Of a stretch of DNA of 64,000 nt, positions 2,629 through 32,543 are shown one piece after another. The number at the start of each line of letters is the position of its first letter. Within the stretch, counting starts at the first letter, position 1. Origin of the DNA: an uncultured delta proteobacterium (GTDB lineage Bacteria > Desulfobacterota > Binatia > UBA9968); NCBI GenBank assembly GCA_963804165.1, contig CAWDPO010000017.1:1-64000 (forward strand), in the 5' to 3' direction. A program made the translations under genes and the position numbers. The notes beneath the pieces were generated by a model that was given only the letters and a program-made list of their open reading frames with translations, was not told where the DNA came from and did no database searches.

Positions 2629-2762
2629 AGCGGCTATCGCGATAACTGCAAACGCCGCGTATGGAGCATGGCGGCGCGTGACAGCGTAAGATTCTTGCGG
2701 TCTTTCCCTCAACGGTTTGAGTCGGGGATTCGAGCTAGAATCCAGATTCAGGCCTGACCCCC

Positions 2763-3060
2763 TCAACTCCTTGATTCATTTGAAAAACAAAGAACCGTTC
2801 GCATTTGCCGGATTGTGGGACTCTTGGCGTAGCGTGGAATTAGGTGATGTGGTCCACACCTTTACGATCATTACGACTGAGGCGAACTCGTTGCTGCGCC
2901 CGATTCACAACCGAATGCCGCTGATCTACGACAGGGAGACGGGTAAGCAATGGCTTGAGCAGAGCTTTGACAGTCGGGCGATGAATCTGGCGGCCGTGCT
3001 TCGTCCATGGCCGGCAGAGCTAATGGAAGTGCAGGATGTTTCTGATTTAGTAAATTGGCC
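2763..3060 (+). pseudogene. SOS response-associated peptidase (SRAP/YedK) fragment
   Basis: EPFAFAGLWDSW...TFTIITTEANSLLRPIHNRMPLI; N-terminus missing; begins right after a cctgacccc end (2753-2761). Confidence 0.8.
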
Positions 3061-3221
3061 TAGTCTTCTCGCTAGTCTTCCTCACGAGAGCAACGAGGGG
3101 CTTCTCGTCCAGGACCATCGTTGCTCTCGACCGCGAGGTACCGAAGAGTTTCGACTATTTCCGCCGGATCTGTATATTGCCTCCTTCGAGCTTGTGCTCA
3201 CCAGAGTTGGAACACAGCATA

Positions 3222-4228
3222 GTGTCAGGCTTTCATATTGCATTATTGTAATTGGCTAACCAATAATTTTTCTCTCTCGCGATCGCGATTTGCCGCATAA
3301 GCAGAATACAATCGGCTGATGATCGATGAATCACGATGCAAACGCTTGCCGATTTCCTTAACAGTGACTCTACCCCACTCCCGCGCTAGATAAACCAACA
3401 TGGACCTCGCCCGTATCCACTTCCGTTGACGCCCGGCTTGGACTAAATCCCGTTCGGTCGCGCCATAGACTTCGGCCGTCAACCGCAGCAATTCTGTAAA
3501 TCGCGCTCTTGGACCAGGGACATCGATTTCCCTTTCCGCGCGAATCCGCTTGTCGATCTGTTCGACAAACTTTCCATCGCCTAAGAATCTCTGATCCCGC
3601 AGATCATAATAGTCCGCTCGATGTCCCGCTCCTTTGCCCTCCGCCATGAATTTCAAATAAGCTCGCCTGGCTTGGCCCATCGAAGTAGCCAACGCTCCTA
3701 AAACCATCTCGAACTCCACCTTAACCGCACTCCTCTTGCCCAAATACGCCCCATGGCTGCTCCACCGGTACATCCAGGGATCTATCGGTACGCGCATCCG
3801 TCCCGGGTTAAGGTGTAAATAGCGGACCAACTCCAATAAATACGCCTGGCGGTCGCACAAAATAGCTTTGTAGCGTCCTTGAAAAAGATGGCCGACTTTT
3901 TTGTATCGCCGGTTGTAGTATCCCGTATACCTGAACTGTAATCCCTGCATGATCTTGGATAATCCGACCTCGCCGGTTTCGATCAGCAAATGAACGTGGT
4001 TGCTCATCAGCACATAGGCATAAATCCTAAAACCGTAGCGTTGCCGGTACTCCTCGAGTCGCTCCAAATAACATTCCCGGTCTGCAGCGCTGCGAAATAT
4101 CACTTGGCGCTGATTGCCCCGGCAAATCACATGGTAAAATGCTCCCGCGTATTCCACTCTTGGTTTCCGCGCCATCACCGCCTTCCTACGACAGTCTGGC
4201 CCAATAAGTCAATATGAAAGCCTGACAC
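3222..4228 (-). mobile_element. HUH (Y1/RAYT-type) element bounded by 27-bp terminal inverted repeats
   Basis: Left 3222-3248 gtgtcaggctttcatattgcattattg; right 4202-4228 revcomp gtgtcaggctttcatattgacttattg (outer 19 bp identical, 25/27 overall). Confidence 0.85.
3243..4178 (-). CDS. REP-associated tyrosine transposase-like HUH endonuclease with C-terminal DnaA-C-like HTH
   Basis: YHVICRGN, NHVHLL (HUH), GHLFQGRYKA, YLHLNP (catalytic Tyr), WSS; C-term ARSMLVYLAREW...EIGKRLHRDSSII. Confidence 0.92.
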   Translation of the reverse strand: MMARKPRVEYAGAFYHVICRGNQRQVIFRSAADRECYLERLEEYRQRYGFRIYAYVLMSNHVHLLIETGEVGLSKIMQGLQFRYTGYYNRRYKKVGHLFQGRYKAILCDRQAYLLELVRYLHLNPGRMRVPIDPWMYRWSSHGAYLGKRSAVKVEFEMVLGALATSMGQARRAYLKFMAEGKGAGHRADYYDLRDQRFLGDGKFVEQIDKRIRAEREIDVPGPRARFTELLRLTAEVYGATERDLVQAGRQRKWIRARSMLVYLAREWGRVTVKEIGKRLHRDSSIISRLYSAYAANRDREREKLLVSQLQ

Positions 4229-4254
4229 CAAGCTGCGTGTGACACCAAGCTGCG

Positions 4255-4697
4255 TCCGTTTCCAGTATCTCGAGAAGGGACGTGAGGCGTGCGACGCTCT
4301 GATAAACCGAATACCGGATCCGCTCAGACGCGAACGCCGGCGCGACGTCATTCACAACGGCGTAGAGGCCCGAGAATTCAAAACCGCCGTGCGCATGTGG
4401 GAAGTGCTGCTGACGGATATGGAAAGAACACTCGGCGGCAGCCGTTGGCTCGCGGATGACAACTACTCGCTCGCGGACGCGGCTTATACGCCTTACCTCA
4501 CTCGACTCGATCATCTGAACCTCCTCGACTGGATCGCAAAACGTCCGCGCCTTGCAAACTGGTACGAACGGATACGTGCTCGGCCCAGCTATGACAGCGC
4601 AGTAGGACGATGGGAAAACCGCGAGTATATCGATCTCATGAAGACGAAGGGCGGTGAGGTGTGGCCGAGAATCAAGCGAATGATTGACGAGCTGTAA
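4255..4697 (+). pseudogene. Glutathione S-transferase, C-terminal domain only
   Basis: MERTLGGSRWLADDNYSLADAAYTPYLTRL...RPRLANWYERIRARPSY; no N-terminal thioredoxin domain; abuts the RAYT end. Confidence 0.75.
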
Positions 4698-20373: not shown

Positions 20374-20519
20374 CGTGTGGATTCCGCGAGCTTCGGCCAC
20401 TGCGAACTGGATAAAGGCGAACTCGGGGGAGAGGCTCCAATGGATGAATGGATTCTCTTCAGACTTTAGCTTGTTTGCTTCAGCGCGGCACCAAAGTTTG
20501 GGGTCGGGTTGAGCTATTG

Positions 20520-22558
20520 GTGTGTCCAGATGAAATGCTGTCGTGATCCATAGGGTGACTCTCATCGAAGTGAGAGGTGAGGGAAGTCCCGCGGCGGTAA
20601 AAGCCACAAGCCGCCTAGCTTAAGTAGCAGCATTAAGAGCAATCGAGATGCTGAAGCCTACCGACAAAGTCAGCGCAAGGCTGATGAGCGAGTGACCGGG
20701 TTGCAACGTGAGTGAACGCTGAGCAAGCCTCGTCAAGGCCAAGAACCGGGGGGTCGAGCCAATCAATACTTGGCGAAGACAGTATGAGCCATCTCAAAGT
20801 GGCTTATGGGATGGATCACACCGGCGGGGTATTGGCGGCGACACGGTAACAGGGACACGATGGAAACTGGAGAAGTCCTGCTTGCCTCAGGAGAAATTCC
20901 TGGAGAAGGATCGGCCCTATAACTGCGGACACAGGAAAAGGACCGAAGGCAAACAGGATGGCGGATTGGCCCGTAGTAGTGAGGAAGTCCGGTAATGCGG
21001 ATGGAGCGAAGGGGCCATGCTGAGTTTGATTCTTTCGACCGCAAGGTGAGGCAGGGAAGGGATGATAAAACCTTTCGTTGATCTGCAAGAACTGAGGCGA
21101 AGGATATACCGTAAGGCGAAAGCCGAGAAGACGTGGCGGTTTTGGGGTCTCTATGTCCAGGTCACAAGGGCAGAGACCCTAAGAGTGGCGTATCAAGAGG
21201 CCAAGGCCAATGACGGAGCACCTGGTCTCGATGGAATGAGCTTTGAAGACATCGAAGCTCAAGGAGTGGAGAAGTTTCTAGCCGCGATTCGACAGGAGCT
21301 TCTCACTGGGACCTACCAACCTAGCAAGAACCGACGGGTAGAGATTCCCAAGGGGAACGGCAAGACCCGCAAGCTTGGAATTCCCACCATCAAGGATCGC
21401 GTCATTCAGGGGGCTGTAAAGCTTATCCTGGAACCGATCTTTGAGGCCGACTTTCACATAAGTTCATTTGCCTACCGGCCTCGGCGTACGGCGCATCAGG
21501 CATTGGACCGAGTTGTACATGGGCTGGTGCAAGGACTGACTCAAGTCATCGATGTAGATCTGAAGGGTTACTTCGACAATATCCGACATCATCTTTTACT
21601 TCGGAAGCTGGCCCTGAGAATAGAGGACCCAGCGATCCTGCACTTGGTCAAGCAGATTCTGAAGGCCAACGGCAAGCGAGGAGTACCTCAAGGGGGAGTG
21701 CTCTCACCGCTACTGGCTAATCTGTATCTGAATGACTTGGACAAGGCGATGGAAGAGGAGATGGTTAAGCGCAGGAGAGAAGGGAAGTGGGAGCGGGTGA
21801 TTTACACTCGTTATGCCGACGACATGATCGTCTTGGTGGACGGGTATCCGCAGTGGCAGCCGCACGTAGCAGTTATCAAGAGGCGGCTGGAAGAAGAGCT
21901 GAAGAAGGTCGACGTTGAAGTCAACGACGAGAAGACGCGGGTCGTGGATTACGCAAGTGGCGGGAGTTTTGGGTTTTTGGGATTTGATCTCAGAGAGGGC
22001 CGCAATCGCTTCGGTAAGCAATTCGTTCTGCGTACGCCGATGAGAAAGAAGCAGAGCGACCTGGTTAAGCGTGTCGGGAGAATTTTGAAATTTTCCCGGC
22101 ATCGGAAGCTCAGGGATGTGCTGGATCAGATCCGGCCTGTGATTGTGGGCTGGATCAATTACTTTCGAGTGGGCAACGCGCGCCGAGCGTTTGGCTGGAT
22201 ACGCTTTGAAATGATGAGGAAGATACGCCGATTTGCGATGAAGCAGAAAGGCCGCCGTGGCTGTGGCTGGAAGAGATGGAGTAACGAGGCGATCTACAAA
22301 GAGTGGGGATTGGTCAACGATTATCGTGTCCAGTACTTCTACCGGTCTCCCGTGAAAGTTTCTCCGGCACACTAGGCAGATGACGCCTTAAGATGAACAG
22401 GCTCAGGAAAGCCGGATGACCGAAAGGGTCACGTCCGGTTTGATGCGGCGGGGGCTGGAAACGGATTTACGGTGGGGCTAGTGAGGCACCGTCAAACGAA
22501 AGAGACGGCGAACGGATAGGCTTCACCTTCGAGACACCGCGCCAGTCCTCGACCCTAC
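20520..22558 (+). mobile_element. Group II intron with RT/maturase ORF (no endonuclease domain)
   Basis: 5' GTGTG at 20520; candidate EBS1 hairpin gccaa-tcaatac-ttggc (20758-20774); domain V aaagccggatgaccgaaagggtcacgtccggttt (22408-22441); long DVI ending ...gaccctAC at 22558. Confidence 0.9.
21062..22375 (+). CDS. ltrA: Group II intron reverse transcriptase/maturase
   Basis: GAPGLDG, RKLGIPTIKDRVIQ, DLKGYFDNI, GVPQGGVLSPLLANLYL, RYADD, FLGF, GWINYF; 437 aa, no HNH. Confidence 0.95.
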   Translation: MIKPFVDLQELRRRIYRKAKAEKTWRFWGLYVQVTRAETLRVAYQEAKANDGAPGLDGMSFEDIEAQGVEKFLAAIRQELLTGTYQPSKNRRVEIPKGNGKTRKLGIPTIKDRVIQGAVKLILEPIFEADFHISSFAYRPRRTAHQALDRVVHGLVQGLTQVIDVDLKGYFDNIRHHLLLRKLALRIEDPAILHLVKQILKANGKRGVPQGGVLSPLLANLYLNDLDKAMEEEMVKRRREGKWERVIYTRYADDMIVLVDGYPQWQPHVAVIKRRLEEELKKVDVEVNDEKTRVVDYASGGSFGFLGFDLREGRNRFGKQFVLRTPMRKKQSDLVKRVGRILKFSRHRKLRDVLDQIRPVIVGWINYFRVGNARRAFGWIRFEMMRKIRRFAMKQKGRRGCGWKRWSNEAIYKEWGLVNDYRVQYFYRSPVKVSPAH

Positions 22559-22645
22559 ACCTATTTTTGACCGCCATTGAACCCCCGCTCTCAAGACGGC
22601 TGCGATTGGTTAAATTGAATACACGGATACAAAGATATATTAAAC

Positions 22646-23970
22646 CACAAGCGTCCGGGTATTAATGGAACAAATTTAGTTGATTAGGTGAAAGTGTTTG
22701 GATGTCCTCGGTGACGATTTTGTTAAGTAGCTGATCTAAAGGGATTCGTTCAAACATGGTTAGGCTCAAGATCTGTAATATTTCATACAAGCTGGCGGAA
22801 ATGTTGAGTCGTTTTTTGACGATGGCGACGAGCACGTAAACCGAGACGGCGATCCAGATTTGAGTTTTGACCGCGTTCTCGGAGGTGCCGAAGAAGACTT
22901 TGATACGAAGATGCTGCTTGATCCATTTGAAAAACAATTCGACTTGCCAACGGCAACGATAAAGCTCGGTGATAGTGAATGCTGGCAAGGTGAAATTGTT
23001 GGTGAGGAACACCAAGCCCTTGCCGGTTGCCGGGTCCTTGAATCGGACACGACGCAGCGGCGTGTCGAAGTCTTGTTTGGAGTAAAAGCCGGTGAGTACG
23101 ATGGTCTGATCGCAAATCAATCCGGTGCTTCGATCGACGGGATGGGAATAACGGCGCTGGGCTTTGAGGTTGGACTTGGCACGGGTCACAAAGAAGCTTT
23201 TCGCCTCGTGCAGTTGATAAAGCCGATCGAAGTCGATGTAGCCTCGGTCCATGATGTAGAAAGCACCGGGCTCGGGCAGCAGCAAGTCCAGGACGTTGAC
23301 GTCGTGCAGTTTGCCGTCGCTGATGTGGAGAAACGAAGGGATATTGCCACGCAAATCCAAGAGCGTGTGCAACTTGATGGCTGCCTTGGTCGAGCGAAAC
23401 GGCGCCCACGGAAAGACCGACAGGCACAGGTCGATCGTACTGGCATCCAAAGCATAGACCGTGTCTTTCAAATCGATACCAAACGGTTCTGTGGTATAAA
23501 GACGGCGGGCGATGGCAATGAGCGACTGGGCAAAGTCGGCGTAGATGCGCCAGTCGCGACTCTCGTTGGCATCGGCCAGAGTACTGCGGGACACCCGGCT
23601 CTTGATGCCCATGTGATAGAGCTTGCGCTGTTGCGCGCGCAGGCACGCTTCGATGTCGCGCAAGCTTTCTCGATAAGTCAGTTGAGCAAAAGCCATACAG
23701 AGGTATTGGTCGAGACAAGAAAAACTTTTGACCTTGTACGTACCGCCATAGCGCGCCACGCAACGGCCAAACGTCGTGCGCGGCAAGTGCTCGGTGACTT
23801 GCGTGAACACCAGTTTGCCCAAATTCATCCAGACCTCCTGCGAGACAGTTCCTCGCAGGGTCGCAAATCGACGGCAAGTGTTTCAAATCGAGACCAAACA
23901 TACTCAGGAGTTATTTAAATCAAATCCTACAGTTAACGCTCTGCCACTACTGAACGTCCGGACGACAATG
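22646..23970 (-). mobile_element. IS4-family insertion sequence with 9-bp target duplication
   Basis: Ends cacaagcgtccgg / revcomp cattgtcgtccgg; direct repeat atattaaac at 22637-22645 and 23971-23979. Confidence 0.88.
22662..23828 (-). CDS. IS4-family DDE transposase (DUF4372-like N-terminus)
   Basis: QLTYRESLRDIE, DASTIDL, MDRGY, YRCRWQVELFFKWIKQHL. Confidence 0.95.
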   Translation of the reverse strand: MNLGKLVFTQVTEHLPRTTFGRCVARYGGTYKVKSFSCLDQYLCMAFAQLTYRESLRDIEACLRAQQRKLYHMGIKSRVSRSTLADANESRDWRIYADFAQSLIAIARRLYTTEPFGIDLKDTVYALDASTIDLCLSVFPWAPFRSTKAAIKLHTLLDLRGNIPSFLHISDGKLHDVNVLDLLLPEPGAFYIMDRGYIDFDRLYQLHEAKSFFVTRAKSNLKAQRRYSHPVDRSTGLICDQTIVLTGFYSKQDFDTPLRRVRFKDPATGKGLVFLTNNFTLPAFTITELYRCRWQVELFFKWIKQHLRIKVFFGTSENAVKTQIWIAVSVYVLVAIVKKRLNISASLYEILQILSLTMFERIPLDQLLNKIVTEDIQTLSPNQLNLFH

Positions 23971-23984
23971 ATATTAAACCAATA

Positions 23985-32399: not shown

Positions 32400-32543
32400 A
32401 TGATGCGGCGCCATCCGCGAGTCCATGCCGAAGGATTGCTCTTTCACGTAATGGCCGGTGGCAACGACGGGCAGAAATCCGAGTCGGTCAAATTGTCGCT
32501 TAACTCACTGTCCGTGAAACCCGGGCCAGCTCAATTCGACCCC
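32400..32543 (+). pseudogene. Internally deleted RAYT-type remnant (MITE-like)
   Basis: MMRRHPRVHAEGLLFHVMAGGNDGQK resembles the N-terminus of the 3243..4178 protein; end motif agctcaattcgacccc at 32528-32543. Confidence 0.65.

Follow-up and report, generated by a model that had tools for sequence, protein, structure and literature searches.

The stretch of DNA analysed here, called the window throughout, comprises 64,000 nucleotides of contig CAWDPO010000017.1 from an uncultured delta proteobacterium of the Binatia (assembly GCA_963804165.1), and at positions 20520-22558 it carries a group II intron that interrupts a sequence resembling the terminal inverted repeat (TIR) of a TIRtron. As described in the main text of Di Nocera et al. 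(2013, PMC3733652), TIRtrons encode TIRYT transposases and have repeats with the consensus GGGGWSAS. One intact TIRtron lies in the same window, as do a transposase remnant with a TIR-like end and an IS4-family element (Table 1). We compared the exon junction of this intron with that of a second copy in the same genome and with those of related introns, and we find that the lineage is associated with TIRtron repeats and that the guide sequences of these introns covary with their exons.

Table 1. Positions of the intron, its exons and the mobile elements in the window (EBS, exon-binding site)
Feature	Position	Strand	Evidence or remark
Group II intron, 2039 nt, GTGTG...CCCTAC	20520..22558	+	RF02003 match; second copy with different flanks
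5' exon, solo TIR-like target, GGGGTCGGGTTGAGCTATTG at 20500-20519	20498..20519	+	match to TIR of the intact element
3' exon, inner part of TIR-like site (ACCTATT...), ended by the IS4-family element	22559..22645	+	
EBS2, AAGGCC	20735..20740	+	fixed-register pairing with exon -8..-13
EBS1 hairpin (EBS1 CAATAC at 20764-20769, loop 20763-20769)	20758..20774	+	stem conservation, covariation
EBS3, U, pairs with first 3' exon base	20832	+	alignment column
Intron-encoded reverse transcriptase/maturase, 437 aa	21062..22375	+	Pfam, TIGR04416
Domains V and VI	22407..22558	+	RF00029 37.6 bits; fold
Intact TIRtron	3224..4226	-	Y1_Tnp and Bac_DnaA_C domains; TIR pair
TIRs of the intact TIRtron, GTGTCAGGCTTTCATATTG	3224-3240 and 4210-4226	+ and -	intact element
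TIRYT gene	3243-4178	-	Y1_Tnp 5.2e-16; Bac_DnaA_C 3.5e-09
Y1 transposase N-terminus remnant (32400-32470) and TIR-like end (32528-32543)	32400..32543	+ (remnant), read on - (end)	14/16 against 20500-20515
IS4-family element	22646-23974		DUF4372 and DDE_Tnp_1; NF033592 272.7 bits

The intron and its host element

Both boundaries of the intron are common to the window copy and the second genomic copy, and they have the conserved GUGYG and AY ends, with GTGTG at 20520 and ...CGACCCTAC at 22558. Assembled contigs of a public run (X2) diverge just past 22558, in agreement with the 3' boundary. The Rfam model RF02003, covering domains 1 to 4, matches 20574-20711 with 108.8 bits (gathering score 49), and the combined domain V and VI model, RF00029, stays under its gathering score of 40 because domain VI is unusually long. 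Domain V lies at 22409-22441 with its AGC triad (aligned as AAGCCGG...), and the predicted fold of 22400-22558 consists of the domain V hairpin and a long domain VI stem from which a single A bulges, at 22552 and 7 nt before the 3' end. The distance from domain V to the 3' end is about 117 nt (22442-22558), far above that of a usual domain VI, and is occupied by one long stem with an inner extension. The encoded reverse transcriptase (RT) scores 356.5 bits against TIGR04416 (cutoff 300) and has YADD in its translation, and among Pfam domains only RVT_1 and GIIM were found in it, with no endonuclease domain. The region is a complete group II intron with an open reading frame (ORF). Its organisation is IIB-like, with EBS3 in a separate loop; membership in class C (IIC) was considered and rejected, as the target strands fold no better than shuffled sequences and an EBS2 is present.

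The intact element of the window encodes a protein with a Y1 domain and a DnaA-like helix-turn-helix (HTH). TIRYT transposases have Bac_DnaA_C, HTH_23 or HTH_28 as their C-terminal HTH, and members of subclass 2.1 of Quentin et al. (2018, PMC6006769) carry Bac_DnaA_C or a related HTH. The two TIRs of the window element are identical over 19 nt and start GGTGTCAG, one mismatch away from GGGGWSAS. Its protein has 19 tblastn matches on 12 contigs of the genome, and in many of 18 upstream regions a sequence that begins GGGGTCAG or GGGGTCAA lies about 50-60 nt ahead of the start codon. Judged by these sequence features, the host elements are TIRtrons, with TIRYT transposases that combine a Y1 (HUH) domain with a DnaA-like HTH, and not classical repetitive extragenic palindromes (REP) with REP-associated tyrosine transposases (RAYT). 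We rejected a RAYT identity for the window protein, which reaches 62.5 bits against NCBIfam NF047646, where the cutoff is 80. A REP system was likewise rejected: the 8-mers of the motif occur 90-202 times in the genome, all within the range for 8-mers of the same composition and at or below the median of that range, except for GGGGTCGG (202 occurrences against a median of 183), and the repeats have no predicted hairpin. An estimate of REP-like abundance by a loose regular expression gave 559 mostly spurious matches and was dropped.

Insertion sites in this genome and in related introns

When the exons in the window are joined, the 29-nt junction is identical at 21 of 29 positions (counted by hand) to the reverse complement of 4203-4231 at the right end of the intact TIRtron, and the part of this match that falls in the 3' exon comprises 6 of 7 positions. 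The segment 20500-20515 is also identical at 14 of 16 positions to the reverse complement of 32528-32543, a TIR-like end of the same subtype as the site of the intron. An earlier note on this DNA, made from the sequence alone, had reported these two counts together with a hairpin, GCCAA-TCAATAC-TTGGC, at 20758-20774, and its strings, coordinates and counts were all verified in the sequence.

The genome (46 contigs, 7.5 Mb) contains a second copy of the intron at G000:C12:16189-18227 on the minus strand, with 2039 of 2039 bases aligned and an identity of 100% as printed. Read in the intron sense, the 5' exon of this C12 copy ends GGGATCAGGCTTTCGTATTG and its 3' exon starts CCCTTAC, and the 5' exon agrees with the TIR of the intact window element in 15 of 17 bases and is in register with the junction. 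On both strands of the 7.5 Mb the TIR 17-mer occurs with at most two mismatches at four places only, namely both repeats of the intact element, one site on contig C8 and the 5' exon of the C12 copy. With the terminal five bases, TATTG, fixed, we calculate a chance of about 4e-5 that 10 of the 12 remaining bases match at one given position. Over the 20 nt upstream of the intron the two copies share only 13 bases (counted by hand), and the two sites are therefore independent targets and not sequence carried with the intron. Two full-length copies of the same sequence at different sites suggest that the intron was recently active, with splicing and retrohoming themselves being predicted. Both copies lie in solo repeats, with no Y1 gene within 1.4-1.5 kb downstream.

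To the two copies of this genome we added 121 related loci (numbered with the prefix L), 41 of them from species-representative genomes and 80 being the best of 354 confirmed from metagenome contigs. Intron starts were located with a pattern for the first 10 intron bases at 420-720 nt before the RT start, and intron ends with a profile of the last 183 nt of the window intron. This located 95 junctions in the 123 sequences. Removal of 12 that were duplicates or had a short flank left 83 distinct ones with 5' exons of 34 nt or more, and these were split by RT identity to the RT of the window into 71 junctions with at least 55% and 12 with less than 55%. At 56 of the 71 junctions the core [GT]G[TC]C[AG] begins between -23 and -16, mostly at -18 to -20, compared with 7.2% of random positions in these loci (734 of 10262) and 1 of the 12 junctions with more distant RTs (binomial P ~2e-50; Fisher's P 5e-6). 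GGGGWSAS with at most one mismatch is found at 40 of the 71 junctions, against a background of 232 of 6982 (3.3%); the looser core was used as well because the strict consensus misses many real ends such as GGGGTCAA. Anchored at the junction, the base frequencies show G at -20 (76%) and at -19 (82%), CTT at -11 to -9, TTG at -3 to -1 and A at +1 (55%). Of the logo expected in the earlier note, GGGGTCRGG-N6-TATTG/AC (the slash marks the junction), only the GGGGTCA core holds. Mid-repeat and in the final exon bases, each element family has its own sequence, to which EBS2 and EBS1 are matched. Its broader proposal, a lineage specialised on REP/RAYT-type ends, stands as far as the ends belong to elements with HUH tyrosine transposases, given the C12 copy and the 56 of 71 junctions, and fails as to the REP/RAYT identity of hosts that are TIRtrons.

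In a quick maximum-likelihood tree of 69 RT proteins, all repeat-associated introns fall on one side of a branch that separates 61 rows from 8 (SH-aLRT 83), and the tree has two deep subclades. The hosts of TIR-associated introns are metagenome-assembled genomes labelled Binatia, Nitrospirota, Thermodesulfobacteriota, Planctomycetota and Myxococcota, and the lineage occurs in many soil and sediment metagenomes. Identical RT proteins are found in different repeat variants (L009 and L110; L120 and L122), and L065-L068 have different outer flanks.

The same loci show how the intron is matched to its site. The earlier note had placed EBS1 in the loop of the hairpin at 20758-20774, and this is borne out both by the stem, whose pairs are kept in 51, 50 and 47 of 51 distinct sequences with several pair types, and by covariation of EBS1 with the last 5-7 exon bases: the run of EBS1-exon pairs anchored at -1 has a mean of 5.38 with the own exon, whereas permuted exons give 3.56 (maximum 4.09; 0 of 2000 permutations reach the observed value). 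For EBS2, scoring in a fixed register over 79 junctions gives 4.13 of 6 pairs against 3.22 for permuted exons (0 of 2000) and at most 3.18 for shifted registers, with clear examples in AAAGCC-GGCTTT (L006), AAGAC-GTCTT (L005, L012), TGCC-GGCA (L015, L021) and AGAGTC-GACTCT (L092, L093). Free, unanchored scoring of EBS2 barely exceeded its control (4.77 against 4.48) and was discarded, the fixed register alone being informative. The intron-binding sites (IBS) in the window exon are IBS1 at -6 to -1 and IBS2 at -13 to -8. The note suggested that the first base of the 3' exon could pair with the U adjacent to EBS1, but its partner is U20832 in a separate loop. This alignment column (intron position 313, context GGGGTA-T-TGGCGG) is Watson-Crick complementary to +1 in 84% of 61 sequences, against 56% for the runner-up column, and its composition of T30/G20/A11 faces A30/C19/T10/G2 at +1. 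A delta-type pairing was rejected, the base 5' of EBS1 being T in the window, L005 and L015 while +1 is A, T and C, respectively.

With respect to the element, the GGGGTCA end of the repeat is 5' of the intron in all 57 clade junctions with a located 3' end, and the intron therefore always reads inward. At L006 both the intron (413-2447) and a 311-aa gene with Y1 and DnaA_C domains lie between repeat arms (394-412 and 3420-3438) that are 89% complementary; the gene starts 35 nt past the intron, and its product is 75% identical to the TIRYT of the window. L014 has the same build, with intron and Y1 gene inside a TIR pair. Of these 57 junctions, nine have a co-oriented Y1 gene starting at +27 to +43, three have a convergent Y1 gene downstream, with the intron in the distal repeat, and 20 have a shorter flank and no Y1 gene. 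An inverted repeat partner in the 3' flank is clear only for L014 (15/16) and for L070 and L071 (13/16 and 12/16). In about two thirds of the cases that are informative, the repeat occupied by the intron is a solo copy or a remnant. Since the transposase gene, when present, starts 27-43 nt past the intron, the intron can ride inside the element and could be spliced from read-through transcripts.

Many TIRtron repeats are preceded at their outer boundary by a tandem copy of 7-14 nt, made of a few flank bases and the opening bases of the repeat. The window has TGACACCAAGCTGC twice within 4223-4253, and a tandem copy is present at 11 of 68 intron-bearing ends (including L009, L012, L015, L054, L083, L120 and L124) and at several intron-free elements of this genome. 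These copies may be footprints of cutting or insertion by the Y1 transposase. By eye, several elements have TTGAC, 17 nt and a TA-rich hexamer, which might make a promoter in the repeat that the intron splits; this is no more than a speculation, a scan of 4100-4300 having given no sigma-70-like site.

Several further observations concern the intron family. Many clade members (L009-L021, L033, L036, L108-L125 and others) start with GCGTG, or with GCGCG or GCATG, instead of GTGYG, and the variant GCGTG-type start aligns base for base with GTGTGTCCAG of the window. At L066 and L035 there are head-to-tail intron arrays, in which one intron is followed immediately by the 5' end of the next (GTGTGTCCAG... 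or GTGCGTCCAG...) as its 3' exon. In a soil metagenome (run X3) one contig, at a depth of 2, joins 21126 to 22401 with 23 other letters in between, which suggests an ORF-less derivative of this intron family. A distant second group II intron RT, 35% identical, lies at G000:C9:86217-87299 of the same genome.

As for the surroundings, the IS4-family element begins 87 nt past the intron and has a copy with 99.2% identity at G000:C43:12796-14129. The region of the intron is a nest of three kinds of mobile DNA. The genes flanking the intact TIRtron (2717-3259 and 4239-4697) look truncated: the SRAP match covers only positions 120-212 of the 214 in its profile, and the other flanking ORF has only a C-terminal GST domain.

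Site choice and alternative explanations

To assess how far base pairing accounts for the site, we counted the positions in the genome that pair with the guides of the intron. At least five EBS1 pairs can be formed at 22433 sites, and at 655 of these the pairing with EBS2 and EBS3 equals or exceeds that of the window site (4 of 6 pairs plus EBS3). Only 66 of the 655 carry the loose core. Nine sites pair fully with EBS2 and EBS3, none of them occupied, and they include the end of the intact TIRtron, between 4210 and 4209 on the minus strand, which had been named as a target in the earlier note and is indeed a vacant site with five EBS1 pairs, six EBS2 pairs and EBS3. Among 11 clade junctions with three EBS1 pairs or fewer, eight nevertheless keep the standard spacing to the core. 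Pairing by itself does not account for the choice of site, because so many sites pair as well as that of the window, and this surplus, the weakly paired junctions at core distance and the identical RTs in different repeat variants together make an extra determinant likely. On the sequences compared, it would be either the GGGGTCA end or the region from +2 to +8, read by the protein.

Structure of the target does not appear to be that determinant. The top strands of four repeats fold no better than shuffled sequences (z-scores -0.20 to 0.45), and since the repeats are not predicted to fold, a mechanism based on structured targets is not supported. This leaves without support the analogy drawn in the earlier note with introns that enter single-stranded or hairpin targets such as terminators and attC sites. 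A terminator-like match at 4234-4219 depends on the flanking sequence and is absent elsewhere, and it was rejected as a general feature. One clade member outside any repeat, L118, pairs perfectly with a C-rich site, through 7 bp of EBS1 and 7 bp of EBS2. Because it pairs perfectly with a site that is not a TIR, retargeting by a change of EBS occurs, and L118 is an apparent escape from the TIR niche via changed guide sequences.

We consider it very probable that this is a recently active, IIB-like intron without an endonuclease, and that the natural homing site of its lineage is the terminal inverted repeat of TIRtrons, held by the contacts of EBS1, EBS2 and EBS3. The intron RNA would reverse-splice into the repeat some 19-21 nt from its outer end, in the inward-reading direction, with EBS1 paired to exon positions -1 to -6, EBS2 to -8 to -13 and EBS3 (U20832) to +1. 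Where the repeats of TIRtron families diverge in their middle part, EBS1 and EBS2 would change along with them, and the outermost part of the repeat would stay intact. Retrohoming would be the mechanism of such insertions, and the repeats may benefit the intron as a safe haven.

Several results weigh against this interpretation. Among 89 other genomes of the same family we found no empty orthologous site for the 5' flank of either copy (identity at most 79%, with matches that are short or end at least 115 nt before the junction), and no contig joins 20519 to 22559 in the assembled contigs of public runs; for these two reasons we infer the insertion and do not see it. The window site pairs poorly with EBS2, two of its four pairs being wobbles, and the intact TIR between 4210 and 4209, which is better paired, is unoccupied. 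The strict core is missing from 15 of the 71 junctions, most of them visibly degenerate ends (for example GGGATCAGG or ATTATCAGGTC), and about four junctions (L050, L044, L118 and L061) have no resemblance to the repeat at all. No Y1 gene is detectable at 25 of the 57 junctions despite at least 400 nt of 3' flank, both copies of this genome among them. The key branch of the RT tree has an SH-aLRT of only 83, from a quick search and with an arbitrary root, and the permutation tests treat the introns as independent, ignoring their kinship.

The alternative with the strongest claim is ordinary sequence-specific homing, in which about 13 nt of EBS-IBS pairing would fully explain the site, as for RmInt1 in ISRm2011-2, and GGGGTCA would be a mere neighbour. 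The strong covariation of EBS1-3, the perfectly paired site of L118 outside the repeats and the failure of the repeats to fold all speak for such homing, yet 655 sites, only 66 of them with the loose core, pair at least as well as the occupied one, which matches the TIR at 21 of 29 positions, 6 of the 7 in the 3' exon among them; most weakly paired junctions (8 of 11) keep the standard distance from the core, and in the five labelled phyla the association has outlasted repeated change in EBS1 and EBS2. We therefore regard pairing as a complete explanation as rather unlikely, though deserving consideration. Chance or compositional resemblance of the exon junction to the repeat might be entertained if the window site were seen alone, with its 21 of 29 positions and a middle part that differs, but in the face of the C12 copy and of 56 of 71 junctions against a background of 7.2% it is scarcely credible.

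It is also conceivable that the association is inherited, one ancestral insertion into a TIRtron having been followed by the spread of intron-bearing TIRtrons as DNA transposons. The introns of L006 and L014 do lie within a TIR pair, so that a transposase could carry them, the outer 19-21 nt of the repeat are intact, and the association spans the whole RT clade. Such passive hitch-hiking is nevertheless very unlikely: two identical copies in this genome occupy different TIR-like sequences without a Y1 gene nearby, identical RTs are found in different repeat variants (L009/L110, L120/L122, L065-L068), and the covariation of EBS1-3 is expected of RNA-guided insertion and needless for DNA transposition. 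A further idea, improbable in our estimate, adds cooperation between the intron and the TIRYT transposase to homing into the TIR. The ribonucleoprotein would recognise the constant GGGGTCA end, or a repeat that is bound by the transposase or nicked and single-stranded, and a 3'-OH from HUH cleavage, or single-stranded DNA from TIRtron transposition, would prime reverse transcription in place of the missing endonuclease. Were this true, the pair would form a composite mobile element, part retroelement and part DNA element, comparable to IStrons, and the intron would also control expression of the transposase from 27-43 nt upstream of its start codon.

Relation to known systems

This lineage is tied to a family of transposon ends and not to one sequence, and it would retune its guide sequences as these ends diverge. 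The association also connects a retroelement with the TIRYT/TIRtron elements, which are poorly understood and, according to the literature consulted on them, have never been demonstrated to move. Because the outer ~20 nt of the repeat are always spared, the intron is a natural marker of the functional ends of TIRtrons. It raises the mechanistic question of what, beyond base pairing, guides an endonuclease-less intron to its site. In annotation, these introns are frequent points of contig breakage, and the junction of repeat and intron helps to find both partners.

No association between group II introns and TIRtrons was found in the literature searched; supplements, subscription journals and the group II intron database were outside the search, and individual insertions may be recorded there. 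The word intron is absent from the main text of PMC3733652 and occurs twice in that of PMC6006769, both times on intron homing and the group I IStron. The target elements themselves fit the TIRtrons/TIRYT of those two main texts, with a Y1 transposase that has a Bac_DnaA_C HTH, GGGGWSAS inverted repeats, and some solo or dimeric repeats (PMC3733652, PMC6006769).

The closest precedent is RmInt1 of Sinorhizobium, as it is described in the literature covered here, whose protein likewise has no endonuclease domain and which likewise homes into a mobile element, the insertion sequence ISRm2011-2. Recognition of the RmInt1 type proceeds via EBS1, EBS2 and EBS3, and ISRm2011-2 encodes a DDE transposase. 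Here, in contrast, the host is a Y1/HUH TIRtron, the site belongs to the terminal inverted repeat proper and has a constant spacing to its outer end, and the association persists through many diverged repeat families and in several phyla, the EBS covarying. Group IIC introns are a second point of comparison; to our knowledge they lack EBS2, whereas this intron has a covarying EBS2 and targets without a predicted hairpin. The account of target specificity in the 2015 review of bacterial group II introns lists three kinds, namely homing sites, terminators and attC, with IIC introns recognising the stem-loops of transcription terminators and of integron attC sites (PMC4424553). The resemblance to IIC introns, on that account, is that there is no endonuclease domain and that the whole lineage is tied to a kind of DNA motif and not to one gene (PMC4424553).

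IStrons, in which a group I intron is fused to an element of the IS200/IS605 type so that insertions are less harmful (as described in PMC4227781), resemble the present system in bringing a self-splicing intron together with an HUH-transposase element. They differ from it in that the intron here is a group II retroelement with its own RT and RNA-guided targeting, inserted in the repeat of a TIRYT element and also in solo repeats without a transposase. Intron homing into mobile DNA is thus known, and it is the TIRtron repeats that are newly recognised as a host.

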